Shown here: positions 21,569-45,853 of the stretch, piece after piece
How positions within the stretch are numbered: position 1 is the stretch's first letter
How the letters are laid out: each line of letters starts with the position of its first letter
Assembly: GCA_020350445.1 (NCBI GenBank)
Contig: CP070717.1
Span: 3,793,904-3,857,903 of the forward strand
Reading direction: 5' to 3'
DNA: 64,000 nucleotides
Source of the DNA: Acidobacteriota bacterium
GTDB taxonomy: Bacteria; Acidobacteriota; UBA6911; RPQK01; JAPXNP01
The notes under the pieces: model-generated
Told to the model about the DNA's origin: nothing
Databases searched by the model: none
The model's input: the letters and a program-made list of their open reading frames with translations, nothing else
Program-made: the position numbers and the translations under genes

Positions 21569-21999
21569 CTGATGACTCCTCGGTAGCGGTCATGTTGGCG
21601 TTCGCGGAGGCGTTCGAAAAGCACCGAAAGGAAGATGAGTCCGAAGCCCAGGAAGAGGCCGAACACCAGGATCTTCTCGAACAGGGGTTCTGTGGGTGAG
21701 GTGGCAAACTGAAAGGCACCGTAACCGACTGTAACGACTGCCCAGACAATGAGAACGAGCCAGCCGATGCTGCGAGTCCCTTTCTCCAGAATCGTGGTCT
21801 CCATCGAATTCCACTCCTGTAGCGTTGGTTGCTGCATTTCGAGTTCGCGCGTTGCTTCTTTGGCGAGCTTTAATTCATCAAGTACATCACTGCAGATGGC
21901 ACAGTCCGTTAGGTGTAACTCAACGAACTGGACCTGCTGCTGGGTCAGTTCTCGATCAAGGTAACCGGAAAGGTAGATCTCAATTTCTTCGCATTTCAT
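21565..21999 (-). CDS. Membrane-anchored anti-sigma factor, zf-HC2 type
   Basis: N-terminal CEEIEIYLSGYLD…HLTDCAICSD zinc-finger pattern followed by one TM helix. Overlaps the ECF sigma gene by 4 bp upstream and ybjQ by 4 bp downstream. Confidence 0.55.
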   Translation of the reverse strand: MKCEEIEIYLSGYLDRELTQQQVQFVELHLTDCAICSDVLDELKLAKEATRELEMQQPTLQEWNSMETTILEKGTRSIGWLVLIVWAVVTVGYGAFQFATSPTEPLFEKILVFGLFLGFGLIFLSVLFERLRERQHDRYRGVIR

Positions 22000-22583
22000 G
22001 ACTTCGTAATCCCCAATGCCGCAATCAGGTTCTTCCGAGCATGATGCAGTCGGGACATCACGGTCCCCAGGGGTATATCCAGGATCTCAGCGATTTCCAG
22101 GTAGCTGTGTCCCTGGTAGTCCTTGAGGAAGATAATCTCCCGTTGGTTTTCGTTGAGGCTTTGAAGGGCCGTCCAAATCTCGTTTCGGAGAACCTGCTGG
22201 ACCGCCTTGCCCGATGACTTGGGATCCGCCAGATAGTCCGGCAGCCCATCGGCAGAAACGCGTTTCTGCCTGCGCAGATGATCGATCGACAGATTCCTGA
22301 CAATGGTCAGAAGCCAGGGCCCAAAGCTGCGTTTCAAGTCGAACTTGCCCAGGTTCTGGTAAGCCTTGATGAACGCATCCTGCACGATATCCTTCGCATC
22401 TTCGTAGTTCTGCAGGTATTGATAGGCGAGGGCAAAAGCCCGGCCACGATGCTGCGTAAAGATTTCGGCATAAGCGCTGGTCTGTCCTTCAAGAACTCTT
22501 TCCAGGATCTCAACCTCCATTTCTTCTTTGGTTCTGGTTGGCATATGTCCTACGTTCCATCTGTTGAGATTATTCAGCGCCAC
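21996..22583 (-). CDS. ECF-subfamily RNA polymerase sigma-70 factor
   Basis: Region 2 (IVQDAFIKAYQNLGKF…WLLTIVRNLSIDHLRR) and region 4 HTH (HSYLEIAEILDIPLGTVMSRLHHARKNL). Confidence 0.8.
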   Translation of the reverse strand: MALNNLNRWNVGHMPTRTKEEMEVEILERVLEGQTSAYAEIFTQHRGRAFALAYQYLQNYEDAKDIVQDAFIKAYQNLGKFDLKRSFGPWLLTIVRNLSIDHLRRQKRVSADGLPDYLADPKSSGKAVQQVLRNEIWTALQSLNENQREIIFLKDYQGHSYLEIAEILDIPLGTVMSRLHHARKNLIAALGITKS

Positions 22584-22642: not shown

Positions 22643-24433
22643 TCAAAGGGGCCAGATGATCGGGATAAAGATGCTGGCCACGATCCAGAGAAGTACATTC
22701 AGAGGGATGCCGACTTTGAGGAAGTCGGCAAACTTGTAGCGCCCCGGGCCATATACCATCAGGTTCGTGTGGTAGCCGAATGGGGTGAACAGAGAAGATG
22801 AAGCGGCAAACGTGATCGCCATCAAGAAGGGCATCGGATCGACGTGGAGTTCATGAGCGGAGGCGACACCGATCGGTACGAGCAGAATCACTGCTGCATT
22901 GTGTGACATGATTCCGGCAAAGAGCGTGGAGAGCAAATAGAAGATCGGTATGATCACGATCACCCCGAGGAGATCGGTCAAACCCAGGAGGCCCTGGGCA
23001 ACGAATTCGGCGGTGCCGGTCTTTTCCATCACCACGCCGAGCGGGATGACTCCGGCCAGAAGGAAGATGACGAACCAGTCAATCGCATCGTAAGCGTCCT
23101 GCAGGCTGATACAACCGGTCAGGACCATGAGGAGACAGCCGACAATTGCCGAGACGAGGATCGGGGAGATCCCGAAGGCAGCCGAAGCCACAACCCCGGC
23201 AACAATCAGGAAGGCGCACATCGCTCGGTCACTCTTGACCCTGGGTAAATCCTTCTCCTGCAGGGTCAGGAAATCATTCGAGGCATTGAGTCGCTCGATT
23301 AGACCCTTGCGGCCCTGTAGAAGCAGCGTGTCTCCCCCTTCCAGGGGAATCTCACCGAGTTTGTCCCGGATAGTCCCTCCCGGCTTTCGAATGGCCAGGA
23401 CGAAGGCCCCGTAGCGATTTCTAAAATCCGCCTTCTTGAGCGTCGAGCCTGCGAGACGTGAGGTCGGTGAGATGATTCCCTCGGCCAGGACCCGCTCATC
23501 GGCCGTGAGATCCTTTTCCCCATACTTTGTCTCAGAGCGGATAGAGAGCCCCTCGAAGGTATTGAAGTCGATGATGCTTTGAATCCCGCCCTGGATAAGT
23601 AGAATGTCGCCTTCCTTCAACCTTGCCTCAGGAATGCCGCATGACAAGCGCAGTTCCCCGCGGACAATGTCGAGGATCGTGACGTCATAACGATCGCGAA
23701 TCTGGGCCTCTTTGGCCGTTCGTCCGATCAAAGGGGATTTCGGCTCAACGGTAACCCGGGTCAGATAGTTGCCAATGCTGTATTTCTGGGTCAGGTCTTT
23801 CGGATCGACGCGCTCAGGAAGCACGTTGCGGGCGTAGAAGTAGAGGTAGAGCATTCCGACCGCAAAAAAGATGATCCCGAGCTTCGATAACTCGAACATT
23901 GCGAATTCGCCCAGCCCATGGTCGGCTGCCATCGAACTGACAAGAATGTTGGTCGAAGTACCGATCAGCGTGCAGGTTCCGCCGACAATCGAGGCGAATG
24001 AGACGGGAATCAGGAGTTTCGATGGGCTGATCTTCTGCTGTTTGGAGATCGTCAGAGTAATCGGAATGAAAACTGCGACCGCCGCAGCATTGTTGATAAA
24101 GGCGGAGATTGTCCCCACGATCAACATCAGCAGTACGAACATCAGGTTTCGACTCGAACTTCCGAATCGCATCAACCGCTGGGTGACCCAATTGATCGCG
24201 CCGGTCTTCAGCAGGCCCGCACTCAAGATGAACATGGCGGCAATGGTGACGGTGGCCTTGTTGGCGAAACCAGATATCGCCTCTCCAGCATCGGGGAAGT
24301 TAGGCCGGATCAACCCGATAACCATGAGCAGGCCCATCACGAGCAGGGCGACGAGGTCTGCCCGAAATTTCTCTGAAGCAAAGGCAACCAGGGCCGCAAC
24401 AACGATAACGATGACCAGGATGATGTCAAGCAT
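22643..24433 (-). CDS. DASS/SLC13-family anion transporter with two internal TrkA-C (RCK_C) domains
   Basis: N- and C-terminal permease halves (about 5-6 TM each) flank two soluble RCK_C-like segments. Start placed at MLDIILVIV. Divergent from dsrA. Confidence 0.75.
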   Translation of the reverse strand: MLDIILVIVIVVAALVAFASEKFRADLVALLVMGLLMVIGLIRPNFPDAGEAISGFANKATVTIAAMFILSAGLLKTGAINWVTQRLMRFGSSSRNLMFVLLMLIVGTISAFINNAAAVAVFIPITLTISKQQKISPSKLLIPVSFASIVGGTCTLIGTSTNILVSSMAADHGLGEFAMFELSKLGIIFFAVGMLYLYFYARNVLPERVDPKDLTQKYSIGNYLTRVTVEPKSPLIGRTAKEAQIRDRYDVTILDIVRGELRLSCGIPEARLKEGDILLIQGGIQSIIDFNTFEGLSIRSETKYGEKDLTADERVLAEGIISPTSRLAGSTLKKADFRNRYGAFVLAIRKPGGTIRDKLGEIPLEGGDTLLLQGRKGLIERLNASNDFLTLQEKDLPRVKSDRAMCAFLIVAGVVASAAFGISPILVSAIVGCLLMVLTGCISLQDAYDAIDWFVIFLLAGVIPLGVVMEKTGTAEFVAQGLLGLTDLLGVIVIIPIFYLLSTLFAGIMSHNAAVILLVPIGVASAHELHVDPMPFLMAITFAASSSLFTPFGYHTNLMVYGPGRYKFADFLKVGIPLNVLLWIVASIFIPIIWPL

Positions 24434-24778
24434 GTGCTTCCTCAATACCGATTAACTCAGGTGTCGAGAACCGCTGCGACTTTCAATCTCCGCTGCCAAC
24501 GGATCAACCATCCAAACAGATCCTTCTCTCCTGCACATTGATGACCGGAATCGAATCTCTCATGAAATTCCGCCAGGTAAAAGCGAAAAGTAGTTAAGAA
24601 CACGTTCGATGGAAAGCCAAAGTACGAGCCAGGAAAGCTATCAAGAGTAAATGCATATTCATGGATAACTTGTTCTTTGTGGTAATTCACCCAGTGATTG
24701 AGTCTATTGCCCCATGGGGGTTCCGGCCCGGTTTTCGGGATTCGGGGCTTTCGAGCGACCTGTCCAAAGGACCTGAAA

Positions 24779-24788
24779 TTGCATGCAA
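24779..24788. promoter_or_regulatory. Perfect 10-bp palindrome TTGCATGCAA about 105 bp upstream of dsrA, a candidate operator
   Basis: Read directly from the dsrA / DASS-transporter divergent intergenic region. Confidence 0.25.
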
Positions 24789-24892
24789 AATGCTTTTGGT
24801 ATGCGCTTTCTCCGTAAACGGAGGGGCAACGGTGTAAGTTTCGAAATATAGGGTTTTTCTAACCGGGCACAGGAAAGGAGCGAGGTGCGTCT

Positions 24893-26074
24893 ATGAGCCA
24901 GAAGGAACGGAAAACACCCTTGGTAGACGAGCTTGAGAAGGGGCCTTGGCCAAGTTTTGTCAAGGAAATCAAGAGCGTCGACAACCCCAAGGCGAAGGAT
25001 CTCCTGGGGGTGCTTGAGCGGTCCTACCAGGACAAGATCGGGCACTGGAAACATGGCGGACTGGTCGGAGTCATGGGATACGGCGGAGGCGTCATTGGTC
25101 GGTACAATGATCTTCCTGACGAGTATCCAAACGTCGCTGAGTTTCATACCCTGCGTGTAAATCAGCCCTCGGGTTGGTTTTACACGTCAGATGTACTTAG
25201 AAAACTTTGCGATATCTGGGAAGAGCATGGCTCCGGAATCACCAATATGCATGGTTCAACCGGTGACATCATCTTCCTGGGTTGTTCAACCGAAGAGCTG
25301 GAACCGACCTTTGCAGCATTGACAGAGCTGGGATTTGACCTCGGGGGCTCGGGGTCATGTATGCGGACTCCGAGTTGTTGCGCCGGGATGGCGCGCTGTG
25401 AGTGGGCCTGTTACGACACCATGGGGCTTACCCATGACCTGACAATGGAGTACCAGGACGAGCTGCACCGGCCGCCGTTTCCCTACAAGTTCAAGTTCAA
25501 GATGGCAGGTTGCCCGAATGACTGCGTCGCATCGGTGGCGCGGGCAGATCTGTCGATCATCGGGACTTGGAGGGATGAGATCCAGATTGATCAGGAGGCT
25601 GTCAGGGAGTACGCCAACTCCTCGGAATTGAACGTACTCGAAGATGTCGTTGAGCGCTGTCCGACCGGGTGCATGAGGTACAACGGACAGCTCGAGATTG
25701 ACGACGAGAACTGTGTGAAGTGCATGCACTGCATCAATGTGATGCCGAAGGCACTGGCTCCGGGCAAGGAGCGCGGAGCAACCATTCTGATCGGATCGAA
25801 GGCGCCGATTATTGGTGGTGCGCTGCTCTCGTCGGTACTGGTTCCTTTCCTGGAGATGGAGCCCCCGTACGAAGACCTCAAGGAGCTGATCGAGGCAATC
25901 TGGGATCTCTGGGCTGAACATGGCAAGAACCGTGAGAGAGTTGGGGAATTCATCCAGAGGGTTGGCCTGGGCAACTTCTGCGATGAAATCGGACTGGACG
26001 TGGCACCAGAGATGGTCATCCAGCCGCGTACCAACCCCTACATCTTTTACGAAATGGACACTGCGGATTATTGA
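24893..26074 (+). CDS. dsrA: Dissimilatory sulfite reductase alpha subunit
   Basis: 393 aa with siroheme/[4Fe-4S] Cys clusters and a ferredoxin-like insert ([12 protein letters not shown]). Directly followed by dsrB and dsrD. Confidence 0.9.
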
Positions 26075-26109
26075 CCGGTAGGTCAGTTGATCTGAAAGGA
26101 GAAGATGCC

Positions 26110-27195
26110 ATGTCGACTAGCGTGAAGAAGAGAGTTACCGATATCGGCCCCCCGCATTACGAACAGTTCCTGCCTCCGGTGATCAAGGAGAATTACGGAA
26201 AGTGGAAGTACCATGAGGTGTTGAAGCCCGGCGTCCTGGTTCACACCGCCGAGTCAGGGGAAAAACTCTATTCGGTTCGGGCGGCGACACCACGCCTGGC
26301 CAGCATCCATTCGATTCGACTGTTCGCCGATCTGGCGGACGAGTTCTCGGACGGCTATCTGCGCTATACGAGCCGGAACAACGTGGAATTCCTGCTGACG
26401 GATCCCGACAAGATTGATCCGCTGATCGCGAAGCTGGGTGCTGAAGGCTATCCGGTCGGCGGAGTCGGTGCGGCGATCAGTAACCCTGTCCACACGCAGG
26501 GATGGATCCACTGCCACTCGGCTGCTTCAGATGCTTCGGGGGTCGTGAAGGCCCTCATGGATGAGCTTTGCGATTACTTCACCGGCCAGAAGTTGCCCGC
26601 CAAACTGCGACTGGCCTTTGCCTGTTGTCTGAACATGTGCGGAGCTGTCCACTGTTCGGATATCGCTGTACTCGGAGTTCACCGACGGGTTCCGAAGATC
26701 AATCATGAAACGATTCGGACCCAGTGTGAGATTCCGACGACGGTATCGGCCTGCCCGACGGGCGCGATCCGGCCCACGAGCGTCAATGGAAAGCAGTCGG
26801 TTGAAGTGGTTGAAGAACAGTGCATGTTCTGTGCGAACTGCTACACCGTTTGCCCTTCGATGACCTTGAACGATCCGGAAATGGACGGGGTATCGATTTG
26901 GGTTGGCGGCAAGGTCAGCAATGCCCGGCACGAGCCGATGTTCTCGAAGTTGGCGATCCCATACCTCCCGAACAATCCGCCTCGGTGGCCCGAGGTAGTC
27001 GATGCGGTCAAGCACCTCGTCGAGATCTATGCCGCTAATGCCCGAAGGTACGAACGCATGGGCGAGTGGATTGAACGGATTGGATGGCCGAAGTTCTTCG
27101 AAATGACAGATCTCGAGTTCACGAAGTACCACATCGATGACTTCAGTCATGCCGGTTTGTCTTTTCGGACGTCACTTCACTTCAGGCATCAATAG
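26110..27195 (+). CDS. dsrB: Dissimilatory sulfite reductase beta subunit
   Basis: Start at MSTSVKKR with a GGAGAAG RBS. Cys clusters ([25 protein letters not shown]) typical of DsrB. Confidence 0.9.
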
Positions 27196-27204
27196 GGAGA
27201 GGAA

Positions 27205-27444
27205 ATGAGCCAAGAGGTAGGTGTCGAAGAAGTCGCTGAGGCGATGTTTGACCTGGTCAAGCAGACCCATGGGAAGAAGAACCTGAAGCCGATGGATCTG
27301 ATTAAGGCGATGATCCAGAAGTTCGGCGATGACCGGTGCTCTAAACCACTCTGTAAAAAGGCCATTCGGGAACTGATCGACGGTGGACGATGTATCTACT
27401 CTTACATTGGGGGAAGTTACGTCACTCTGCCACCAGAGGAGTAG
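27205..27444 (+). CDS. dsrD: DsrD (small winged-helix protein of reductive-type dsr operons)
   Basis: 79 aa, Lys-rich helix-turn-helix plus C-terminal …CIYSYIGGSYVTL resembling the DsrD YWSSGSTTMYGL wing. It sits 9 bp after dsrB. Confidence 0.8.
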   Translation: MSQEVGVEEVAEAMFDLVKQTHGKKNLKPMDLIKAMIQKFGDDRCSKPLCKKAIRELIDGGRCIYSYIGGSYVTLPPEE

Positions 27445-27590
27445 ATCTGTGGCCTGCCTGTGAATTGCAGGGAGGGTGGCGCCGGGGCTCGCGGGGTGTC
27501 TCGAACAGGGGCGCCTGAAGAATCAGCGAAGCCGGGTGCCGCCCGATCTGTGGATTCGGAGCGGGCCGGGACCTACCGTGCGTTCTGTTC

Positions 27591-28976
27591 ATGACCATGC
27601 CAGTAGCACAGTCGCCTAATACACCTCGGATCATCGTGGCCGGACTCGGCGGAGACAGTGGAAAGACCCTGGTCTCAATCGGAATCTGCCGGGCCCTGGT
27701 TGAACGGGGGATGACCGTTTCGGGCTTTAAGAAGGGACCCGATTTCATCGATTCCGGATGGCTCCAGAAAGCCACTCGCCGTCCGGGCCGAAACCTGGAT
27801 ACCTTCCTAATGTCGGCCGAGGCGATCCGGACTTCGCTGGCTCGTGAAGCGGAGCGCTCGGATGTATCCGTCATCGAAGGGAACCGGGGACTCTTCGATG
27901 GCTTCGACTCATCCGGAACGCATTCGACAGCTGAATTGGCGAGAGTGACCCAGACCCCTTGTGTACTGGTCGTTGATGTCACCAAGGTGACCCGGACCGT
28001 GGCCGCCCTGGTGAAGGGTTGTCTGATCCTGGAGCCGGATGTGCCCCTGGCGGCCGTCATTCTCAATCGGGTCGCGACCGCCCGCCAGGAAAGGGTTATT
28101 CGGGAGTCACTTCAGCAGAGCGTCGGAATCCCCGTGGTGGGTGCGCTTCCTCGGCTGGATCGAGAGTATCTGCCGGGCCGGCATCTTGGCCTGCTGACAG
28201 CTGCTGAGCACCCCCAGGTTGAAGAAGTGCTCGACTTCATTGCCGCAACCATCCGGTCTTCGGTGGATCTCGATGCTGTCCTGAAGGTAGGTGCCTCAGC
28301 CAGGTCCTGGCCAGTCGTTGCGAGTCCCGGGTACCAGAAGAAACCCGCAAGTGTCAGGATCGGCGTTCTACAGGACGCGGCGTTTTCCTTCTACTACCCC
28401 GAGAACCTTGAGGCCCTCGAGCGGGAGGGGGCGATACTTCAGCCGGTCTCACCCCTCGGTGAAAGCGAGTTTCCCCAGCTTGACGGACTCTATGCCGGCG
28501 GGGGATTTCCCGAGGTTTATGCCGAGGCGCTGGCGGGGAATACCGGGTTTCGAGAAGGCCTTCGGCGGGCCTTGGCCGACGGGCTGCCGGTGTGGGCGGA
28601 ATGTGGTGGGTTGATTTACCTCTCCGAGGGCCTGCGGCTCGGGTCCCACTCGGTTCCGATGGCTCAGGCCCTGCCGGTCCATGTGGAGCAGTTGCCCAGG
28701 CCTCAGGGCCATGGCTACGTGGAGGGGGTCATCGATCGCGAGGACCGTCTCTTTGAACTGGGAGAGCATTTGCGGGGGCATGAATTTCATTACACCCGGA
28801 TCTGTGAGGGCAGTGCACGGCTGGCAACGGTCATGGATTTGAGTCGGGGTACTGGGATCGGAGCGGGTCGGGATGGCATTCGATGCGGATCTGTCTTTGC
28901 CTCCTATACGCACCTGCATGCTTTGAGTTCCGACAGATGGGCGCAGCGACTGGTGGCTGCGGCCGGAGGAAGATGA
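27591..28976 (+). CDS. dsrN: DsrN (cobyrinic acid a,c-diamide synthase homolog, proposed siroheme amidase)
   Basis: CbiA/CobB architecture: N-terminal ATPase (VAGLGGDSGKTLVS) plus C-terminal glutamine amidotransferase (WAECGGLIYLS). Located in the dsr operon. Confidence 0.8.
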   Translation: MTMPVAQSPNTPRIIVAGLGGDSGKTLVSIGICRALVERGMTVSGFKKGPDFIDSGWLQKATRRPGRNLDTFLMSAEAIRTSLAREAERSDVSVIEGNRGLFDGFDSSGTHSTAELARVTQTPCVLVVDVTKVTRTVAALVKGCLILEPDVPLAAVILNRVATARQERVIRESLQQSVGIPVVGALPRLDREYLPGRHLGLLTAAEHPQVEEVLDFIAATIRSSVDLDAVLKVGASARSWPVVASPGYQKKPASVRIGVLQDAAFSFYYPENLEALEREGAILQPVSPLGESEFPQLDGLYAGGGFPEVYAEALAGNTGFREGLRRALADGLPVWAECGGLIYLSEGLRLGSHSVPMAQALPVHVEQLPRPQGHGYVEGVIDREDRLFELGEHLRGHEFHYTRICEGSARLATVMDLSRGTGIGAGRDGIRCGSVFASYTHLHALSSDRWAQRLVAAAGGR

Positions 28977-29443
28977 TGAGTTTGCGCCAGCGTTTCATCG
29001 ATAGTTTTGATCGAGGCAAGAATGGGGATCTCGGCGATTTCGTCCGGTTGATCTCAAAGGAACCGGCGGTCGTCAGACACCTGTTAGGCATGACCTATCA
29101 CCCCGATCGCTCTAATCGGGAACTGGCGATCCGCGGACTGGGAATCGCGGCGAAACACCATCCCGAACTCGTTCAGGAGGTCATTCGCCGGCTGGTCTGG
29201 GCGATGAATGATGAGTCTGGAACCAATGGTTTGACGGCTCCAGACGTTCTCTGCGCAGTCGCTCGGGAGATGCCCGAGATTCTGCTGCCGTTTATTGCCG
29301 ATTTGAGCCGCCTGGCAGGAGATCCCGGCCTGCACAACGGGTTGAAGGCGCTCCTTCGCCAGATTTCCGAGGCGTTTCCTGGTGAGGTTGGACAGCGAAT
29401 GGGGAAGGAGTTGAGTCGGGGAAGAAGGAGGATCTCTCGATGA
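28972..29443 (+). CDS. Hypothetical HEAT-repeat (PBS-lyase-like) protein, translationally coupled to dsrN
   Basis: Start ATGATG overlaps the dsrN stop. Repeated alpha-helical RxLxxLGI-type HEAT units. The listed ORF's upstream extension lies inside dsrN and is probably not coding. Confidence 0.4.
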
Positions 29444-30009
29444 GCCGGTTGAGGGAACGTGTCAACTTGGAGAAGTGCCGCCAACTGGCTGAGGCCAATC
29501 CCGATTCCGCCGGGGCCCATCTCAGGCTGGGAACCGCACTGATGAAGGTGGGATTTGCCGGCAAGGCCGAGGCTTCGCTGGCTCGTGCTGTGGAGCTGGA
29601 TCCGACCTGCATCCAGGGCTGGGTCAACCTCGGAGGACTGCGGCTGGGCCGTTGGGATTTTCAGGGTTGTATCGAGGCAAATCGACGGGCTTTGGAACAG
29701 CAGCCCGATCTCGTTGAGGCTCTGTTCAATAAGGGCCTGGGGCATCTGTACGCCGGAGATACCGAGGCCATGTTGGATTGTTTTCGTCGGGTTGTGGAGT
29801 TGGATCCGGGCCGCGGCGGCGGCCAGTACTTTCTGGCTGTTGGGTTGCTGGCGACCGGTGACATAGCGGGTGCCGAGGAGCACCTGGGTCGGGCCGTCGG
29901 GCTGGGATATTCGCCCCATCCCGACTTCGTGAAGGCCATGGAGCGTGTTGCGAGGGAAGACTCGGTGACGGTCTTGGAGTTCGGTCCCGAGTCGAAACAT
30001 TCGGCGTGA
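29440..30009 (+). CDS. TPR-repeat protein
   Basis: Four to five TPR-like units (AHLRLGTALMKVGFAGKAEASLARAVELDP …). ATGA overlap with the preceding ORF. Confidence 0.55.
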   Translation: MSRLRERVNLEKCRQLAEANPDSAGAHLRLGTALMKVGFAGKAEASLARAVELDPTCIQGWVNLGGLRLGRWDFQGCIEANRRALEQQPDLVEALFNKGLGHLYAGDTEAMLDCFRRVVELDPGRGGGQYFLAVGLLATGDIAGAEEHLGRAVGLGYSPHPDFVKAMERVAREDSVTVLEFGPESKHSA

Positions 30010-30048
30010 CCAATCCACGCCGGGGTTTAGGAGAAAAGGAGAATAGTT

Positions 30049-30366
30049 ATGGCTGATTTTGTTGTTGGCGACATCACACTCGATATCGATGAAGACGGCT
30101 TCATTCAGCAGCCTGAGGCTTGGAATGAAGCGATTGCGAAAGCTCTCGCTAAGACCGAGGGAGTAGATGAACTGACTGAAGCACATTGGAAAGTAGTCAA
30201 CTATCTGCGCGACTACTACCTCGAGTTCGGTATTGCCCCAATGATCAGAAAGCTCTGCAAGTCGACGGGATTCAAACTGAAGGAAATCTACGAACTCTTT
30301 CCATCGGGACCGGCGAAGGGCGCCTGCAAGGTCGCCGGACTACCGAAACCAACCGGTTGCGTCTAG
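30049..30366 (+). CDS. dsrC: DsrC (TusE/DsrC-family sulfur carrier)
   Basis: 105 aa ending with the invariant DsrC arm …GFKLKEIYELFPSGPAKGACKVAGLPKPTGCV (both conserved Cys). Confidence 0.9.
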   Translation: MADFVVGDITLDIDEDGFIQQPEAWNEAIAKALAKTEGVDELTEAHWKVVNYLRDYYLEFGIAPMIRKLCKSTGFKLKEIYELFPSGPAKGACKVAGLPKPTGCV

Positions 30367-30435
30367 CCGGCTGCCGATGGGGGATGTTCACAGGGATCGG
30401 GTCCGTTCCGGATTTGATGGGAGGATTGGACGGCG

Positions 30436-30978
30436 ATGTTTGAGTTGATCTGTCAGCATCGAGAGAGAATTCTCGAGACCTGGTTGACGAAGATCCTTTC
30501 GTCTTATCCTGAACAGACGGCGAGCTTCTGGAGCCGCAATCCCAATCCGTTCGCCAATCCCGTAGGAACTACCTTCAAGAGCCGGGCGGAGCGAGTGTTC
30601 TCGGCACTGCTGGATGGAGCGGAGCCCGGGGAACTCTGCCTGGCTCTGGAGGACATCCTCAAGATCCGAGCGGTTCAGGAGTTGACGGCTGCTGAATCGG
30701 TCGGCTTTGTGTTTCTGCTCAAGGATGCCGCAGCTGAGGTTCTGGCGGAACACCTCTCAGATCCGGGCTCTCTGAAACAGTTGATCAGGTTCTCGCGGCA
30801 GGTCGATCTGGTGGCGCTCGAAGCATTCGAGATTTTCGCCCGAAGCAGAGAACGTGTATTTGAACTGCGGGTCAAAGAACTGAAGCGCACGGGTTTTCTT
30901 CTTCTGAAGCGTTCGAGTCAGATCGCTGGAAACTCCGATGGTACCCACTCTCCGACTGACCCGGGGGAGGTTCAATGA
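30436..30978 (+). CDS. RsbRD_N-like domain protein, possible DsrT
   Basis: The N-terminus (ICQHRERILETWLTKIL) resembles the RsbRD N-terminal domain found in DsrT, which precedes dsrMKJOP in several sulfate reducers. Its stop overlaps the dsrM start. Confidence 0.4.
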   Translation: MFELICQHRERILETWLTKILSSYPEQTASFWSRNPNPFANPVGTTFKSRAERVFSALLDGAEPGELCLALEDILKIRAVQELTAAESVGFVFLLKDAAAEVLAEHLSDPGSLKQLIRFSRQVDLVALEAFEIFARSRERVFELRVKELKRTGFLLLKRSSQIAGNSDGTHSPTDPGEVQ

Positions 30979-31976
30979 ACGTTTTGGTTGCACTTACTGC
31001 CTTGCTCCTGCTCGGTGGAATCGTCTATCTGGGGGTTGAGATTGCTGGTTTAGAGTTTCTTTTTGGCGTCATCATCCCCTATGCAGCGGTTCTGACCTTC
31101 CTGATCGGCCTGGTGATCCGGGTGATCAGCTGGGCCCGGACTCCGGTCCCGTTCCGGATCACCACAACCTGTGGTCAGCAACGGTCCCTTTCCTGGATTT
31201 CTCCGAACAGGATAGACAATCCTTCGACTACTCTCGGAGTACTGGGCCGGATGGCTCTCGAGATCTTTCTGTTCCGCTCTCTGTTTCGCAATACGCGAAA
31301 CGAATTGAGGGAAGGGGAGAACCGGCTCGTGATCGGTCCGAGCAAATGGCTTTGGCTCATGGGCCTGGCGTTTCACTGGTCGTTCCTGATTATCCTGCTG
31401 CGCCACCTGCGGCTTTTTGTAGAACCGGTGCCACAGATCACCCTTCTGATACAGAGCCTTGACGGGTTCTTTCAGGTGGGTGTCCCGGTGGTCTATTCCA
31501 CCAGCCTCTTGTTCGTGACGGCGGCGACGTTGCTCTTTGTTCGCCGTATCGTCCTGCCCCAGGTTCGCTACCTGTCCCTCCCGACTGACTACTTTCCGCT
31601 CTTCCTGCTGATTTCCATCGCGGGGAGTGGGATCATCCTGCGGCACTTCATCAAAATTGACATTGTCCGGGTCAAGGAAGTCGTACTCGGTTTGATGACG
31701 TTTCGACCGGAAGCTGGTGGCCTGCCCGTCCTGTTCTACTTTCATCTTTTCCTGGTTTCGGTCCTTCTTGCTTACTTCCCCTTCAGCAAGCTGGTCCACA
31801 TGGCGGGAGTCGTACTGAGTCCTACTCGGAATCTCGCCAATAACAACCGTCGAATCCGTCACGTCAATCCCTGGGATTATCCGGTGAAGACCCATACCTA
31901 CCAGGAATACGAAGAGGAATTCAGGGGGAAGATGATCGGTGCCGGAATTCCCGTCGAGGAGGAAGACAATGGCTGA
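30975..31976 (+). CDS. dsrM: DsrM (NarI-like heme-b membrane subunit of the DsrMKJOP complex)
   Basis: 333 aa with 5-6 TM helices and conserved His residues in TM helices. Followed by dsrK. Confidence 0.85.
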   Translation: MNVLVALTALLLLGGIVYLGVEIAGLEFLFGVIIPYAAVLTFLIGLVIRVISWARTPVPFRITTTCGQQRSLSWISPNRIDNPSTTLGVLGRMALEIFLFRSLFRNTRNELREGENRLVIGPSKWLWLMGLAFHWSFLIILLRHLRLFVEPVPQITLLIQSLDGFFQVGVPVVYSTSLLFVTAATLLFVRRIVLPQVRYLSLPTDYFPLFLLISIAGSGIILRHFIKIDIVRVKEVVLGLMTFRPEAGGLPVLFYFHLFLVSVLLAYFPFSKLVHMAGVVLSPTRNLANNNRRIRHVNPWDYPVKTHTYQEYEEEFRGKMIGAGIPVEEEDNG

Positions 31977-35970: not shown

Positions 35971-37788
35971 ATGTATCCCGTCATGCTGAATCTGGAGAAC
36001 CGTTCCTGCCTGGTTGTTGGAGGAGGTGGGGTAGCTTTGCGGAAGGTTGAAGGTCTTCTCACCGAAGGCGCGCGGATCACCGTGATCGCACCCGAGCCGG
36101 TCGCAAGACTCGAAGAACTGGAGCAGGAAGGCGCGATCCGACTGGAGCGCCGGGCCTATCGGGAAGGCGAGTTGAGGGGTTATGCCCTGGGGTTTGCCGC
36201 CACCAATGACCGTCGAGTGAACCGGCAGGTATTCTGGGAAGGCGAAAACCTGGGGATCTGGGTGAATGTTGCCGATGACCCGGATATCTGTTCTTTTCAC
36301 CTTCCGGCCCGATTGAAGCGTGGAGCATTGCAGATAGCGATCGCCTCAGCCGGCGAAGCGCCGTTCGTCGTGCGTCGAATTCGGAGGATGCTCGAGAAGG
36401 CCCTGGGGCCGGAGTGGTCAGAATGGATCCAGGCGGCAGCCGGCTTTCGACAGAAGATCAAGAAGAGCAATCTCTCGCCGGCCGAGCAGCAGCGATGTTT
36501 CGACCGGTTTTTCGATTCGACGGTTGATGAGCAGCGGCTCGCAGTTCGGGTCCCGAACCCAACGGAAGAGGCCACCTGGCTCGATCCCCTGAGAGCCTGC
36601 AATTGCTGTGATACGCCTTCGGGGGAACCTGTTTTGCGGGAGCGAAATGGAAAGGGTTGGGTGGCCCTCGTCGGAGCGGGTCCCGGCGACGCGGGCCTAC
36701 TCACTTTGAAGGGTTATCGCAGGCTCCTGGCAGCCGATGCCATCGTCTACGATCACCTGGCTGAAACCGTGCTGCCTCTCGAACTCAGACCCGAGGTTGA
36801 GTTGCACCCCGTTGGAAAGAAGGCCGGCTACCACCCGGTACCGCAGAGTGAGATCAATGCCCTGTTGATTCGCCTCGCAAGCGGGGGGAAACGGGTGGTT
36901 CGCCTCAAAGGTGGAGATCCGTACGTCTTTGGCCGGGGCGGGGAAGAAGCGGAAGCGCTTGTCAACGCGGGAATCGATTTCGAAGTTGTCCCCTGTGTCA
37001 CGGCGGCGACGGCCGTGTCTGCTTATGCCGGGATCCCCGTGACCTACCGCGAAGAGTCGGTTCGTCTCACCCTGGTTACCGCACACGAATGCAGGAAGCT
37101 GGGTGGAAAACAGTCGCGATGGGATCTGATCGCCCGGGATGAGCATGCCACGCTGGTTGGCTACATGGGGGTAACGAGCCTGCCCTCGGTCGTGAAGCGG
37201 CTGATCGAAGAAGGCATGGATGCGCAGACACCGGCTGCGGTCATCGAACGGGGAACGACCTCGCGTCAGCGTTCTGTCCGAAGCCCACTTTGCGAACTGC
37301 CGCAGCGAGCCGCAGAAGCTGGTATTTGTCCACCGGCGATCTTCGCAATTGGACCATCGGTGGCCCGCGCAGAACACCTCGACTGGTTTACGCGCAAGCC
37401 CCTCTTCGGGACGCGGATTGTCCTGGGGTCCTCGGCAAAAAATTTCGCCCGCGAACTGGAAGAGTCGGGAGCGGAAGTCCTGGCGCTGGGGCAGAGGTTG
37501 ACACCCGCTTCTGAGGTTGTTCTGCGTGCCTTGCCGGTCAGTGATCTCCTCTTCGGGTCGCCCGACGAGGTCGATACGCTCGAGGAACTGCGGGGAAGCC
37601 CGGCCGCCGAGGGAATTGAGGCGGCCTGGTGCATTGGGGTTCAGACGGCTGAACGGGCCAGGGAACTCGGCTGGTCTGGAGTCATTGAACTGGCAGGGGA
37701 TATCGACAGCGCAACTCTGGTCAACAGCTTGATTCGACATAAGACTGCCGTCGTCATGCCTCAGGAACTCAAGATTCAGGGGAGGTGA
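35971..37788 (+). CDS. Siroheme synthase-like fusion: precorrin-2 dehydrogenase/ferrochelatase (SirC/CysG-N) + uroporphyrinogen-III C-methyltransferase (CobA/SUMT) + a ~140-aa C-terminal extension (possibly a HemD-like half domain)
   Basis: N-terminal Rossmann LVVGGGGVALRKVEGLL (SirC-like). Central SUMT motifs VGAGPGDAGLLTLKG and GGDPYVFGRGGEE. Total 605 aa versus about 457 aa for E. coli CysG. Begins 20 bp after dsrP. Confidence 0.75.
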   Translation: MYPVMLNLENRSCLVVGGGGVALRKVEGLLTEGARITVIAPEPVARLEELEQEGAIRLERRAYREGELRGYALGFAATNDRRVNRQVFWEGENLGIWVNVADDPDICSFHLPARLKRGALQIAIASAGEAPFVVRRIRRMLEKALGPEWSEWIQAAAGFRQKIKKSNLSPAEQQRCFDRFFDSTVDEQRLAVRVPNPTEEATWLDPLRACNCCDTPSGEPVLRERNGKGWVALVGAGPGDAGLLTLKGYRRLLAADAIVYDHLAETVLPLELRPEVELHPVGKKAGYHPVPQSEINALLIRLASGGKRVVRLKGGDPYVFGRGGEEAEALVNAGIDFEVVPCVTAATAVSAYAGIPVTYREESVRLTLVTAHECRKLGGKQSRWDLIARDEHATLVGYMGVTSLPSVVKRLIEEGMDAQTPAAVIERGTTSRQRSVRSPLCELPQRAAEAGICPPAIFAIGPSVARAEHLDWFTRKPLFGTRIVLGSSAKNFARELEESGAEVLALGQRLTPASEVVLRALPVSDLLFGSPDEVDTLEELRGSPAAEGIEAAWCIGVQTAERARELGWSGVIELAGDIDSATLVNSLIRHKTAVVMPQELKIQGR

Positions 37789-37794
37789 CGGGCG

Positions 37795-38736
37795 ATGGAA
37801 ACGGTTCCTTTCTGGTTCGCCTGTGCAGGGCTGCTCGCGTTTCTGGTCTCCGTGACCCTTCGAACGATGATGTGGTTAAGGATGCCGATCCACGTTCGGT
37901 GGGAACTCTACCCTGTGGCTCATGAGGGAAAAAGGGCCTCCTACGGTGGATCCTATCTCGAAGAGAGTGAATGGTGGAAGAAACCGAGGGAATTCTCGAT
38001 CTGGGGCGAAATCAGGGTAATGGTTCCCGAGATTCTGTTCCTGGTTGCCTTGCGCGAGCACAACCGAAAGCTCTGGTACCGATCCTTCCCGTTTCATTTT
38101 GGCCTCTACCTGATCACCGCCGGAACGGTTCTCATGGGAGGCTTTGCCCTGATGGGATCCCAATGGGAGAGTGCAGAAGGTTTTGCGGGAGTCCTTCGAA
38201 TGGGGATCATTGTATTCGGACTCGCCGGTCTTGTGCTGGGGTTGCTGGGAGCCGCAGGACTGCTGCACCGCAGAATGACAGCCCCTGAGTTGAAGGATTT
38301 CAGCGCTCCTGCCGACCTCTTCAACCTGGCGGTTTTTGTCGCGGTTTTTTCGGTTGCTCTAAGCGGGATTGTCCTGCTCGGAGTCGTGGAGTTTTTCGCT
38401 TCGTTGACCGGCCTGATCGGACAGATTGTGAAGTTGCCGTTTGGCCACGCGGAGGCCCAGGTCCCGGGTATCGTGGGTCTGTCTGTCGTCTTGATGAGTC
38501 TGCTGCTCGCCTACATCCCGTTGACCCACATGTCTCACTTTATCGGGAAGTACTTTGCCTACCATTCGGTTCGCTGGAATGATGCTCCCAATCTGAAGGG
38601 GAGCAAGCAGGAGAAGGTGATTCAGGAGGCCCTGGGCCAGCCTGTCAGCTGGTCTGCCTCCCACATCGCTGGAGATGGAAAGAAAAACTGGGTCGATGTG
38701 GCTACGACGATGCCCGGGGAGATCAAGGACAGATGA
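37795..38736 (+). CDS. NarI/HdrE/DsrM-like membrane b-type cytochrome subunit
   Basis: 313 aa, 5-6 TM helices, with FHFGLYL and a C-terminal HMSHF His pair positioned like the heme-b ligands of the NarI family. Translationally coupled to the following HdrD-like gene. Confidence 0.5.
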   Translation: METVPFWFACAGLLAFLVSVTLRTMMWLRMPIHVRWELYPVAHEGKRASYGGSYLEESEWWKKPREFSIWGEIRVMVPEILFLVALREHNRKLWYRSFPFHFGLYLITAGTVLMGGFALMGSQWESAEGFAGVLRMGIIVFGLAGLVLGLLGAAGLLHRRMTAPELKDFSAPADLFNLAVFVAVFSVALSGIVLLGVVEFFASLTGLIGQIVKLPFGHAEAQVPGIVGLSVVLMSLLLAYIPLTHMSHFIGKYFAYHSVRWNDAPNLKGSKQEKVIQEALGQPVSWSASHIAGDGKKNWVDVATTMPGEIKDR

Positions 38737-40334
38737 GGTCGAGTTGCATGTTTGCTGACTTCTCTCGCGGTGACGACTGCCTTTTCGAGATCAACCAAAA
38801 GGATCAGCAGCCGTTGCCTCCTCCATTTGATGACATCGATGAAGAACCTCTGTTCCGCAGGCTGACCGAGGAAGCGAAGAAGAAGTATGTCTTGCTGGAT
38901 GACACGATTGCAGTCAACATCCCAAAGCCTGAGACGCAGGAGGAGGAAGCGCAGCTGGTTAACAGCTTTCTTTCGGGGCTGCGACGCCTGGTCAGCCGGG
39001 AGGACAACTGGACGTTTCTCGAGCCGCTGATGATCTCACTCGAACACTGTGCCAAATGCCAGACCTGTTCGGAGGGCTGCCATATCTATGAGGAGAGTGG
39101 GCGGCATCCCTACTACCGTCCGTCCTATCGTTCGGAGATCCTGCGCAGGATATACTTCAAGTATCTGAAGAACAGTTCCACCTGGGTTCACGGTGATATC
39201 GAACTGAACTGGAAGACGGTCGCCCGTTTGATCGAACTCTCCTATCGCTGCAACCTCTGCCGTCGCTGTGCTCAGAGCTGCCCAATCGGAGTCGATAACG
39301 CCTTGCTAGCGCGGGAGATTCGAAAGGTGGCGAGCCAGGAAATGGGAATCGTACCGAAGGAACTGCATGATTCAGGCTCCATGCTGCAGCTCAAGGTCGG
39401 ATCCTCGACGGGGATGAATGCCATCGTGGCCAGGGATAACGTGGAGTTCATCGATGAAGACACGACCGACCGAACGGGAATTGCCGTCGAGACTCCCTGG
39501 GATAAGGAAGGTGCAGATATCCTGCTGATCCATAATGCCGGGGAGATCATGGCCTGGCCCGAAAACCCAGGGGGCTTCGCACTGTTGTTCAGCGCCGCAG
39601 GCCTCAGCTGGACGATGTCGAGTGACCTGGCGGCCTATGATGGGATCAACTACGGGGTCTGGTACGACGATTTCCAGTTCGCCCGCACTGCACTCCTGCA
39701 TTTGGAAGCGGCCCGGAAGCTGAAGGTCAAGAAGATCGTCATCGGAGAATGCGGACACGCTCATAAGGCTCTGTCAGTGATTGCCGACAAGGTGGTAACC
39801 GGAGACCTCAACATCCCGCGAGAAAGTGGGATCAACGTGTTGCGTGATATCGTTCGGGAGGGTCGCGTCAAGTTCGACAAGAGTCGCAACGATTTTCCGG
39901 TGACCCTGCATGATCCGTGCAACCTGGTGAGATTGATGGGAATTGTTTCGCCCCAGCGGGAGATCATCGAGGCGATCGTTCCCAAAGAGCGGTTCCGAGA
40001 AATGGAACCGCACGGGGTCGAGAATTACTGCTGTGGTGGAGGCTCCGGATTTGCCATCATGTCAGGACACAATTTCGCGCACTGGAGGCATCATGTCTCG
40101 GGCCGAAGAAAGCTCCGACAGGTCCTCGAAGCCTTTCAAGGAGAGGTGATGGATATGGAGCATCCCAAGTATGTCTGTGCACCCTGCAGCAACTGTAAAG
40201 GTCAGCTCAGAGACATCATTGCCTATTACGACGCCTGGGAAAGGGCCGGGATCTATTACGGGGGCCTGGTGGAATTGATGGTCAACGCCATGGTCGACGC
40301 CCAGCCCGGCTACATCGATTGGGAATGGCATTGA
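38733..40334 (+). CDS. HdrD/DsrK-like Fe-S protein with CCG domains (second DsrK-like paralog)
   Basis: Two [4Fe-4S] ferredoxin motifs (CAKCQTCSEGCH, CNLCRRCAQSCP) and CCG clusters (ENYCCGGGSGF, CAPCSNCKG). About 90-aa N-terminal extension. Confidence 0.7.
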   Translation: MRSSCMFADFSRGDDCLFEINQKDQQPLPPPFDDIDEEPLFRRLTEEAKKKYVLLDDTIAVNIPKPETQEEEAQLVNSFLSGLRRLVSREDNWTFLEPLMISLEHCAKCQTCSEGCHIYEESGRHPYYRPSYRSEILRRIYFKYLKNSSTWVHGDIELNWKTVARLIELSYRCNLCRRCAQSCPIGVDNALLAREIRKVASQEMGIVPKELHDSGSMLQLKVGSSTGMNAIVARDNVEFIDEDTTDRTGIAVETPWDKEGADILLIHNAGEIMAWPENPGGFALLFSAAGLSWTMSSDLAAYDGINYGVWYDDFQFARTALLHLEAARKLKVKKIVIGECGHAHKALSVIADKVVTGDLNIPRESGINVLRDIVREGRVKFDKSRNDFPVTLHDPCNLVRLMGIVSPQREIIEAIVPKERFREMEPHGVENYCCGGGSGFAIMSGHNFAHWRHHVSGRRKLRQVLEAFQGEVMDMEHPKYVCAPCSNCKGQLRDIIAYYDAWERAGIYYGGLVELMVNAMVDAQPGYIDWEWH

Positions 40335-40350: not shown

Positions 40351-41670
40351 TTGATGGTTGAGAACAGTGACAGCAAGGATGATGTGAGTCGTTCGAACCT
40401 CTTGAAGCTGGAAGACTGGTGGGCCGTCTGGATTGGTGGGGGGCTTCTTCTGATCTGTGTCCTGGTGCCCGGGCTTACGATTCCCAAGGTCGGGAAGTGG
40501 TTGACGTCTCCATTCGAAGTGGTCAGCCCCGAGCTCGTGGTTGGCATTCTGATCCTGGGTCTGTTCCTGGCCCTTTTCCTTTCGGTCGGGACCTGGATTA
40601 TGGACTCCGTTGTCTGGACATTCCTGAGAGGCTTCTGGCTGGTCTTCCTGATCGCCGTGGTGTCCTACATTGTGGCTGAACAGCGGGCGATTGCCGCCAA
40701 GGGATTGGGGTACGCCCTCTGGGCCCTCCTGATCGGCCTGCTGGTCTCGAACACGGTCGGTGTCCCGGAATGGCTCCGGGGAGGTCTGAGGAGTGAGTTG
40801 TTCATCAAGATCGGCCTGGTTCTTCTGGGTGCCGAAATCCTGTTTGGGAATATCCTGGTATTGGGCCTTCCTGGTCTCTTCGTTGCCTGGCTGGTGACTC
40901 CGGTTGTCATCATCACCATGTTCTGGTTTGGCACACGGGTTCTCCGGATGTCGAGCAAGGCCCTGGTCATCGTCGTGGCTGCGGCCACTTCCGTCTGTGG
41001 GGTGTCGGCCGCGATTGCCGCGGCCGCTGCTTCGAGGGCGAAGAAGGAAGAACTGACCCTGGCGGTGGGCATGACGCTGATCTTTACCGTCCTGATGATG
41101 GTGGGAATGCCGCTCCTGGTGAAGACTTCGGGAATGGATGCCGTGGTGGGGGCCGCCTGGATTGGAGGGACGGTCGATGCCACGGGTGCCGTGGTTGCCG
41201 CCGGTTCCATGCTCGGTGAACGGGCCGAACAGGTCGCTGCCGTAGTGAAGATGATCCAGAACATCCTGATTGGAGTGGTGGCCTTCTTCATCGCGCTGTT
41301 CTGGGTGGCGCGGGTCGAACGGGAGCCATCCGGGCGGAGACCCGATGCCATGGAGGTCTGGCGGCGGTTTCCGAAATTCATCGTCGGATTCCTGGCCGCT
41401 TCGTTGATCTTCTCGTTCCTTTTGGAGCCCACGATGGGCTCAGATGCAGTCAGGGGAATCCTCGCCCAGTCAAAGGCCTTGAGGGGATGGTTCTTCTGCC
41501 TGGCATTCGTCAGTATCGGCCTGGAATCGAACTTCGTCGAACTCAAAAAGCAGATGGCGGGGGGCAAGCCGATCCAGCTCTATATCGTCGGCCAGAGCTT
41601 CAACCTGGTTTTGACTCTCCTGGCGGCTTATCTCGCTTTCGGGGGGATTCTTTTCGCCCTTGATTTCTGA
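40351..41670 (+). CDS. Integral membrane protein, YeiH/UPF0324-like (putative sulfate-exporter family)
   Basis: 439 aa with about 10-11 TM helices and Gly/Ala-rich helices (AAATSVCGVSAAIAAAAAS) reminiscent of the YeiH family. Assignment is tentative. Confidence 0.4.
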   Translation: MMVENSDSKDDVSRSNLLKLEDWWAVWIGGGLLLICVLVPGLTIPKVGKWLTSPFEVVSPELVVGILILGLFLALFLSVGTWIMDSVVWTFLRGFWLVFLIAVVSYIVAEQRAIAAKGLGYALWALLIGLLVSNTVGVPEWLRGGLRSELFIKIGLVLLGAEILFGNILVLGLPGLFVAWLVTPVVIITMFWFGTRVLRMSSKALVIVVAAATSVCGVSAAIAAAAASRAKKEELTLAVGMTLIFTVLMMVGMPLLVKTSGMDAVVGAAWIGGTVDATGAVVAAGSMLGERAEQVAAVVKMIQNILIGVVAFFIALFWVARVEREPSGRRPDAMEVWRRFPKFIVGFLAASLIFSFLLEPTMGSDAVRGILAQSKALRGWFFCLAFVSIGLESNFVELKKQMAGGKPIQLYIVGQSFNLVLTLLAAYLAFGGILFALDF

Positions 41671-43582: not shown

Positions 43583-43609
43583 GGTCTGTTACTCCCTCTG
43601 AGCTGGTCG

Positions 43610-45850: not shown

Positions 45851-45853
45851 GAT

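Follow-up and report, generated by a model that had tools for sequence, protein, structure and literature searches.

A pair of genes between dsrN and dsrC

We analyzed a 64,000-nt stretch of DNA from an Acidobacteriota bacterium (assembly GCA_020350445.1, contig CP070717.1, positions 3,793,904 to 3,857,903 of the forward strand; hereafter the window), which carries an operon of dissimilatory sulfite reduction (dsr) genes. Two open reading frames (ORFs), ORF1 and ORF2, lie in this operon between dsrN, which encodes a siroheme a,c-diamide synthase homolog, and dsrC. A first-pass annotation, made from the nucleotide sequence alone, had described a HEAT-like gene and a tetratricopeptide repeat (TPR) gene at this position and had proposed from their tight coupling to dsrN that they serve in DsrAB or DsrC maturation, cofactor delivery or complex assembly. 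Sequence comparison, an AlphaFold2 model of ORF1 and Pfam TPR models for ORF2 all agree with the two gene types and their location. The features of this region are as follows.

27591-28976, + strand: dsrN, siroheme a,c-diamide synthase homolog of 461 aa, CobB-like, with GATase_3 and CbiA domains
28965-28969, + strand: GGAGG, Shine-Dalgarno sequence of ORF1, read from the sequence, within the 3′ end of dsrN
28973 or 28976 to 29443, + strand: ORF1, HEAT/ARM-like protein of 155-156 aa, starting on the dsrN stop codon
29425-29431, + strand: AAGGAGG, Shine-Dalgarno sequence of ORF2, within the 3′ end of ORF1 and 8 nt 5′ of the ATG at 29440
29440-30009, + strand: ORF2, TPR protein of 189 aa, in ATGA overlap with the ORF1 stop codon
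30049-30366, + strand: dsrC, 105 aa, C-terminus ...PTGCV; Pfam DsrC (E = 3e-39) and TIGR03342 (E = 2e-36)

The dsrN product matched Pfam GATase_3 (E = 1e-31) and CbiA (E = 4e-14) and NCBIfam CobB (E = 1e-124). The dsrN stop codon (TGA, 28974-28976) overlaps an ATG at 28973 that is in frame with ORF1 (ATGA), and another possible start codon, also ATG, lies at 28976. Starting from the first of these, ORF1 would encode 156 aa, and from the second 155 aa, in both cases ending at the TGA at 29441-29443. The GGAGG motif lies 3 nt from the ATG at 28973 and 6 nt from the ATG at 28976. The better spacing of the latter, together with a database protein of 155 aa that is 99% identical to ORF1 (P0001), makes 28976 the likelier start. 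Whichever ATG is used, ORF1 starts on the dsrN stop codon; the start at 28972 given by the first-pass annotation was off by 1-4 nt. The tight coupling to dsrN that it had claimed is evident both at this junction and in the ATGA overlap between ORF1 and ORF2, and its assignment of dsrA, dsrB, dsrD, dsrN and dsrC as flanking genes held up in Pfam, NCBIfam and tblastn searches. The dsrC gene lies 39 nt 3′ of ORF2 and has its own Shine-Dalgarno sequence. A promoter and terminator consensus scan of positions 24400-31200 returned no more sites than shuffled sequence, and nothing between dsrN and dsrC that would interrupt the operon.

A look-up of the exact ORF1 of the window in the assembly collection returned no match. 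A large protein collection contained 119 ORF1 homologs of 136-175 aa, and those of ORF2 number at least 173, with lengths of 185-220 aa in nearly all cases and typically about 190-200 aa. In a codon comparison of seven pairs of related loci, the ratio of nonsynonymous to synonymous substitution rates (dN/dS) was 0.09-0.30 for ORF1 and 0.12-0.32 for ORF2. Because homologs of matching length exist and dN/dS stays at 0.09-0.32, ORF1 and ORF2 are real genes under purifying selection, which rules out that they are spurious ORFs and bears out the conservation and coding character expected of them in the first-pass annotation.

Conservation of the gene pair across dsr clusters

To survey gene neighborhoods, we searched 185,579 species, each represented by a single genome, for two peptide patterns, both taken from ORF1 alone, and compared the resulting 49 confirmed loci with the twelve Dsr-region proteins of the window by tblastn. 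At 47 of the 49 loci, the ORF1 homolog lies in a dsr cluster with the order dsrA-dsrB-dsrD-(~2 kb)-dsrN-ORF1-TPR-dsrC-dsrT-dsrMKJO. The remaining two are a 6-kb contig (L016) and a longer HEAT protein of 30% identity in an unrelated neighborhood (L049). The same dsr neighborhood was reached from independent entry points, namely two TPR homologs (P0183 and P0134) and three divergent homologs of ORF1 in which the motif reads WALNDES(G/A)TN (P0118, P0264 and P0271). The occurrence of homologs near dsr genes elsewhere, on which the earlier proposal depended, is thus seen from all three kinds of query.

The cluster type as a whole can be written dsrABD(L)N-ORF1-TPR-dsrC-dsrT-dsrMKJOP. The metagenome-assembled genomes (MAGs) with dsr-context loci represent at least six phyla according to submitter labels, which read Acidobacteriota, Planctomycetota, Myxococcota and Deltaproteobacteria, Gemmatimonadota, Riflebacteria, Pseudomonadota and Fibrobacteraceae. 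At 44 of these 47 loci, the TPR gene adjoins dsrC, separated from it by only tens of bases, and dsrT follows dsrC at nearly all loci. Identity to the window proteins is about 45-55% for ORF1 and the TPR protein, 49-57% for DsrN, about 70-88% for DsrA, DsrB and DsrC and about 30-45% for DsrT; the pair is thus conserved to a degree similar to DsrN, below DsrA, DsrB and DsrC and above DsrT. The placement of ORF1 and ORF2 between dsrN and dsrC is near-obligate, and both genes belong to a single-operon type of reductive dsr cluster.

Two features of the related loci concern the genes around the pair. The gap of about 2 kb between dsrD and dsrN is found in roughly half of them and, where present, holds a gene for a DsrL-like NAD(P)H oxidoreductase with Fer4_20 and Pyr_redox_2 domains (e.g., L001, 6880-8601). 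The window has no DsrL-like gene, and dsrD and dsrN are separated by 146 nt. In one dsr cluster found through its TPR gene (L061, 6501-7008), the gene call between dsrN and the TPR gene spans just 98 aa, after a gap of 210 nt, and may represent an ORF1 homolog that is truncated, frameshifted or called from the wrong start.

Overlapping junctions and gene fusions

Among the 45 loci that have both dsrN and ORF1, the two genes are fused at 4, share a 4-nt NTGA overlap at 24 and overlap in other ways at 14; one locus has a 4-nt gap and two lack a placeable start. The ORF1/TPR junction is similarly tight. At the 45 loci with a TPR match, the genes overlap in 41 cases and are fused in one, with two gaps of at most 30 nt and one unplaced junction.

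The four DsrN-ORF1 fusions (L013, 8282-10426; L020, 8483-10417; L021, 661-2748; L032, 8309-10417) each translate as a single frame of 645-715 codons without internal stops and come from Myxococcota and Deltaproteobacteria MAGs. In each, a linker of about 50-100 residues, basic and of low complexity, connects DsrN to ORF1 on its C-terminal side. An exhaustive profile search recovered further examples, one at full length (P0246) and three partial proteins that join the DsrN C-terminus to ORF1 (P0241, P0243 and P0244). In a Riflebacteria MAG, ORF1 and the TPR gene form a single frame (L027, ~974-1930) that corresponds to a protein of 331 aa (P0140). In the AlphaFold2 model of P0140, both halves are well folded (predicted local distance difference test score, pLDDT, 92), and the TPR half is a regular array of helix pairs.

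From the fusions and the overlapping reading frames, we infer a physical association of ORF1 with both DsrN and the TPR protein. The link to DsrN proposed in the first-pass annotation is strengthened by the fusions of both types.

ORF1 is a predicted HEAT/ARM-like solenoid related to the DVU0298 family

The Pfam scan of ORF1 returned HEAT_EZ alone, below threshold (E = 0.091; 13.8 bits against a cut-off of 27), so that no Pfam HEAT gathering score was reached; a few ORF1 homologs have precomputed matches to PF13513 or PF13646. Of the profile hidden Markov model matches anticipated for the two proteins, those to TPR models on ORF2 therefore stand above their cut-offs, and HEAT on ORF1 appears only as the sub-threshold HEAT_EZ. 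Structure prediction was clearer. The AlphaFold2 model of ORF1 (pLDDT 93.6; predicted template modeling score, pTM, 0.86) is a solenoid of nine helices with no strands, in line with the earlier HEAT-like description. Searched against the PDB, the ORF1 family profile matched designed ARM/alphaRep proteins and PH0542 (E = 1e-9 to 2e-6), and the top Foldseek matches of the model were all generic HEAT/ARM/TOG proteins, the best at E = 0.075. The model and these matches allow ORF1 to be described with confidence as a predicted HEAT/ARM-like α-solenoid.

ORF1 is a basic protein (isoelectric point, pI, 10) with a Lys/Arg-rich C-terminal tail. Residues 72-85, RRLVWAMNDESGTN, are invariant or nearly so, and all 119 homologs contain the core motif; W76, N79, D80, E81, S82 and G83 are invariant in the family alignment. 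On the secondary-structure map, on which this placement is based, the conserved residues are found where helix 5 ends, within the 80-88 loop and in the loops that follow helices 3 and 7, suggesting that they form one conserved edge of the predicted solenoid.

Some ORF1 homologs carry a short Cys-rich tail (CGCG, GGCC or GCGC) after the basic tail (P0039, P0050, P0062, P0064, P0072, P0082, P0102 and P0105), as do the DsrN-ORF1 fusions of L013 and L021. A CxC or CC motif occurs within the last 20 residues of 12 of 110 full-length ORF1 homologs, and the ORF1 of the window has no such tail. These tails might bind a metal or carry sulfur.

The first-pass annotation missed that ORF1 is not an orphan but a relative of the DVU0298 family (NCBIfam NF045662). 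ORF1 matched this model with E = 2e-13 and 50.4 bits against a cut-off of 75, over positions 21-144 of 213 only. When the ORF1 family was aligned with genuine DVU0298 members by hhalign, the probability was 99.9% (E = 2.8e-33), all 145 ORF1 columns were aligned, and they matched approximately the first 155 of the 230 DVU0298 columns, that is, the first two thirds. The two groups share the RRL-W-x-M-N-D-E-S-G loop, with W, E, S and G invariant in the DVU0298 alignment as well. These alignments establish clear homology, and ORF1 can be viewed as a short, operon-embedded branch of the family.

The differences are equally plain. ORF1 lacks a C-terminal stretch of about 60 residues that is present in the DVU0298 family (~210-230 aa), and neither the curated NF045662 cut-off nor the full-length architecture is reached. 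Full-length DVU0298-family members score 120-228 bits against the model, and two divergent, dsr-linked ORF1 homologs barely reach the cut-off (P0264, 76.6 bits; P0271, 77.1 bits). The low score and the shorter length rule out ORF1 as a DVU0298-family equivalog. Genomic context separates the groups as well: at the five neighborhoods inspected, full-length members stand alone among unrelated genes, whereas the ORF1 type is embedded between dsrN and dsrC. An exhaustive ORF1 profile search retrieved 1087 cluster representatives with E ≤ 1e-3, of which 33 reached E ≤ 1e-30, and many of the weaker matches were large generic HEAT proteins.

The full-length members with named sources come from Desulforamulus and Desulfotomaculum species and Archaeoglobus veneficus, and the family takes its name from a Desulfovibrio vulgaris gene; these sources are sulfate or sulfite reducers of three distant phyla. 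The word-indexed search behind this list is biased toward relatives of the query, so we treat it as a lead and not as a distribution. The DVU0298 family consists of uncharacterized HEAT-like proteins and supplies no mechanism for ORF1. A literature search on the tag DVU0298 found a single, uninformative mention in a table of CO-dehydrogenase genes, presumably a misprint for DVU2098, which we take to be cooS of D. vulgaris Hildenborough.

In A. veneficus (CP002588.1, 547901-564545; L064), the full-length DVU0298-family gene directly follows two genes for cytochrome bd oxidase subunits. Rubrerythrin and peroxiredoxin genes lie within a few kb, and a gene for a small sulfite-reductase-like protein (NIR_SIR, 232 aa) lies about 3 kb away. 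This neighborhood may hint at a link to oxidative stress or to a siroheme protein.

ORF2 defines a family of short TPR proteins

ORF2 passed seven Pfam TPR models: TPR_2 (50.9 bits, cut-off 27; E = 8.5e-14), TPR_14 (41, cut-off 23.5), TPR_1 (37.1, cut-off 27.8), TPR_19 (34.9, cut-off 25), TPR_8 (32.1, cut-off 25.7) and, likewise above their cut-offs, TPR_11 and TPR_17. Apart from TPR-type repeats, the Pfam scan contained just one sub-threshold repeat match. By these model matches, ORF2 is clearly a TPR protein. It is mildly acidic, and its invariant positions include NLGG...WDFxG...AN. The best NCBIfam matches, to MamA, PrsT and PilW, were equally weak and belong to unrelated proteins. Assignments of ORF2 as MamA, PilW, PrsT or CcmI were rejected, with scores far under the respective cut-offs. 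On the basis of its homologs, ORF2 is best described as an orthologous TPR family of its own, of about 190-200 aa.

Comparison with known systems and previous reports

Two systems that handle tetrapyrroles offer working analogies, the HEAT-type bilin lyases or chaperones and the TPR apoprotein chaperones of cytochrome c maturation, although in neither case does family membership follow. The phycocyanin lyase CpcE/CpcF consists of small HEAT-like solenoids that handle a tetrapyrrole together with its apoprotein, and the resemblance to ORF1 would be one of working principle. CpcF (5n3u_B) appeared among the Foldseek matches of ORF1 at rank 19 (TM 0.44, E = 0.19), ORF1 had no match to PF03130 (HEAT_PBS) in the Pfam scan, and catalytic or ligand residues cannot be mapped. 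The unmatched PF03130 and the unspecific fold match speak against membership of ORF1 in the CpcE/F group of PBS-lyase HEAT proteins. We note that some full-length DVU0298-family members carry the label "PBS lyase HEAT domain" in their source annotation.

The TPR domain of CcmI/CycH is, like ORF2, a short TPR array, and ORF2 is encoded near tetrapyrrole-handling genes. ORF2 matched PF23914 (TPR_CcmH_CycH) with E = 9e-4 and 19.5 bits against a cut-off of 42, and many of its homologs have the same precomputed match. CcmI carries a membrane-anchored domain, whereas the Pfam matches of ORF2 are the TPR-type repeats and the single sub-threshold repeat described above.

A further parallel lies in the small or accessory genes that travel with dsrAB, dsrC and dsrMKJOP. 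DsrD, DsrT, DsrN, DsrV/W and DsrL belong to this class and were, like ORF1 and ORF2, found via synteny (PMC6018805, PMC6018796). In Pfam and NCBIfam comparisons, ORF1 and ORF2 match none of them.

Full-text searches of the dsr literature for TPR, HEAT-like or hypothetical genes near dsrN, dsrC or dsrAB returned no paper in which the ORF1/TPR pair is named, analyzed or given a function, in keeping with the first-pass view that neither gene is a described dsr component. Anantharaman et al. (2018) sought hypothetical genes near dsr genes and reported dsrT alone (PMC6018805). Acidobacterial clusters drawn by Hausmann et al. (2018) include "syntenic genes 1-4", conserved and of unknown function, which may or may not comprise the ORF1 and TPR families and do not appear in the supplementary tables (PMC6018796). 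Neukirchen et al. (2023) showed co-localized non-Dsr genes in gray (PMC10504309). The two genes have very probably been seen before as unnamed boxes. What is new here is their recognition as a widely conserved accessory module of a known dsr system that is related to the uncharacterized DVU0298 family.

A possible adaptor between siroheme amidation and its client

How DsrAB acquires siroheme or siroamide, and why DsrN is so widely conserved, is poorly understood. To our knowledge, no named Dsr protein other than DsrN modifies a cofactor. HEAT and TPR folds typically mediate protein-protein or ligand binding, and we infer that ORF1 and ORF2 are cytoplasmic, non-catalytic binding scaffolds rather than enzymes. 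Synteny, fusions and fold suggest a role in maturation, cofactor delivery or assembly, and fit DsrAB and DsrC alike as the client.

Within this range, we tentatively hypothesize, at a little short of an even chance, that ORF1 and the TPR protein are a DsrN-associated adaptor pair that links siroheme amidation to its client, either by handing over the cofactor or by recruiting DsrN to apo-DsrAB. DsrN, the HEAT-like ORF1 and the TPR protein would assemble together. ORF1 is basic, its NDESGTN loop is invariant, and several of its Arg residues are invariant or nearly so; it would tether the siroheme amidase to its product or client, and the TPR module would hold the partner protein, apo-DsrAB or DsrC. 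During maturation or assembly of DsrAB, the amidated siroheme would then be passed on or inserted. The stand-alone relatives in classical sulfate reducers, the full-length DVU0298 proteins, would share this binding chemistry. It is plausible that the basic, Arg-rich ORF1, with its invariant polar loop, binds a polycarboxylate tetrapyrrole or an acidic protein surface.

A more specific version is possible but doubtful. The DsrN-HEAT-TPR trio would be a dedicated system for delivering and inserting the amidated siroheme of DsrAB, the DVU0298 proteins would be its counterpart in Desulfovibrio, Desulfotomaculum and Archaeoglobus, and the NDESGTN loop with the conserved Arg residues would form a putative site for tetrapyrrole carboxylates or amides. 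We know of no accessory complex described for cofactor delivery to a siroheme enzyme.

Several observations weigh against the adaptor hypothesis. Two clusters read dsrD-ORF1-TPR-dsrC, with dsrN absent from the cluster within the fetched locus (L005 and L026), and two others read dsrN-ORF1-dsrC, with the TPR gene absent (L006 and L040), suggesting that neither partner is strictly required in cis. The five neighborhoods of full-length DVU0298-family members are heterogeneous and lie away from dsr and siroheme genes, so the shared motif need not be Dsr-specific. The fold of ORF1 matches generic HEAT/ARM proteins (all at E > 0.07), and CpcE/F at rank 19 is no better than dozens of unrelated ones. 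Finally, the model of the P0140 fusion has a pTM of 0.64 (unpaired alignment), and neither the relative placement of its domains nor their interface is predicted with confidence.

The retention of ORF1-TPR-dsrC in the two clusters without dsrN, together with the adjacency of the TPR gene and dsrC at 44 of 47 dsr-context loci, would also suit a function directed at DsrC. The TPR protein would bind DsrC, for example at its flexible C-terminal arm with two redox-active Cys residues, and ORF1 would bridge to DsrAB or DsrK, the pair acting as a DsrC chaperone or gate and not in cofactor maturation. TPR domains commonly bind C-terminal peptides, as in Hop/EEVD and PEX5/PTS1, and a basic ORF1 (pI 10) would face an acidic DsrC (pI 4.9). 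However, the fusions seen join ORF1 to DsrN and to the TPR protein and never to DsrC, both genes overlap their 5′ neighbors whereas dsrC is set off by a spacer with its own Shine-Dalgarno sequence, and the two loci without a TPR gene still have dsrC. We consider this alternative, the main rival, unlikely.

HEAT and TPR proteins often serve as signaling scaffolds, and a regulatory or organizational role would have the pair act with DsrT (RsbRD_N-like) or DsrD on the activity or stoichiometry of Dsr proteins, with no cofactor chemistry. The position of dsrT 3′ of dsrC at nearly all loci and the strongly basic C-terminal tail of ORF1 would fit such a role, as would the regulatory function proposed for dsrT (PMC6018805). 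Yet neither a fusion nor an overlap connects ORF1 or the TPR gene to dsrT or dsrD, coupling and fusions point instead to DsrN, and Pfam and NCBIfam scans of both proteins contain no DNA-binding or sensor domain, which leaves this role improbable. Still less credible, in our estimate, is that the two are passenger genes, generic repeat proteins that entered an ancestral operon a single time and were carried along with it by lateral transfer, with no Dsr-specific function. The pair-carrying dsr clusters do share one gene order and may all derive from one operon type that moves laterally, and the sampled full-length DVU0298 relatives are not dsr-linked. Passengers would hardly be expected, though, to be under purifying selection as strong as that on ordinary genes, to hold their position where protein identity is down to about 45-55%, much as for DsrN, to preserve junction overlaps, to undergo independent fusions to DsrN and to a TPR protein, and to retain motif residues that are invariant in 119 of 119 homologs.

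Found alongside dsrN and dsrC in dozens of uncultured lineages, and in some cases fused to DsrN, the pair provides concrete candidates for the question of how DsrAB obtains its cofactor. The homology of ORF1 also gives a first functional lead for the uncharacterized DVU0298 family, which is present in genetically tractable sulfate reducers. Both genes could join the annotation of dsr clusters and the marker sets used for metagenomes.

The wider operon and its surroundings

On the + strand, positions 24893 to about 40300 form a single unbroken string of sulfite-reduction genes. Besides the region from dsrN to dsrC, it contains the following genes.

24893-26074, + strand: dsrA, 70-87% identical to DsrA in syntenic loci (tblastn)
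ends at 27195, + strand: dsrB, 70-87% identical to DsrB in syntenic loci (tblastn)
27205-27444, + strand: dsrD, from the ORF list; forms the upstream part of the string with dsrA and dsrB (24893-27444)
30436-30978, + strand: dsrT-like gene, RsbRD_N (E = 4e-16), DsrT as defined in PMC6018805
after the dsrT-like gene, ending at 35951, + strand: dsrM, dsrK, dsrJ, dsrO and dsrP, by Nitrate_red_gam, NrfD and synteny
35971-37788, + strand: fused siroheme-synthase-like gene, 605 aa, directly 3′ of dsrP
37795-40334, + strand: dsrM2K2-like pair, after the siroheme-synthase-like gene

The product of 35971-37788 combines a precorrin-2 dehydrogenase-like domain (NAD_binding_7) with a uroporphyrinogen-III methyltransferase domain (TP_methylase); it resembles siroheme synthase and is DsrV/W-like. 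Its presence in the operon indicates that tetrapyrrole supply is encoded alongside the dsr genes, a point in favor of the adaptor hypothesis. Tetrapyrrole-synthesis genes likewise lie 3′ of dsrP in two related loci (L062 and L052).

Further genes flank the dsr string on both sides. After its 3′ end, a YeiH-type (PF03601) membrane protein gene (40351-41670, + strand) is followed by qmoC/B/A-like genes (42419-47104, − strand) that encode an Fe-S protein, a 746-aa FlpD and Pyr_redox protein and a 416-aa ORF. With the qmo-like and YeiH-type genes beside the dsr string, the window is probably part of a complete sulfate-reduction gene island. Divergent from dsrA and 5′ of it, a gene for a 600-aa CitMHS/Na-sulfate-symporter-type transporter with two TrkA-C domains (22643-24445, − strand) is a candidate sulfate transporter gene, and an extracytoplasmic function sigma factor gene adjoins it (21996-22583, − strand).

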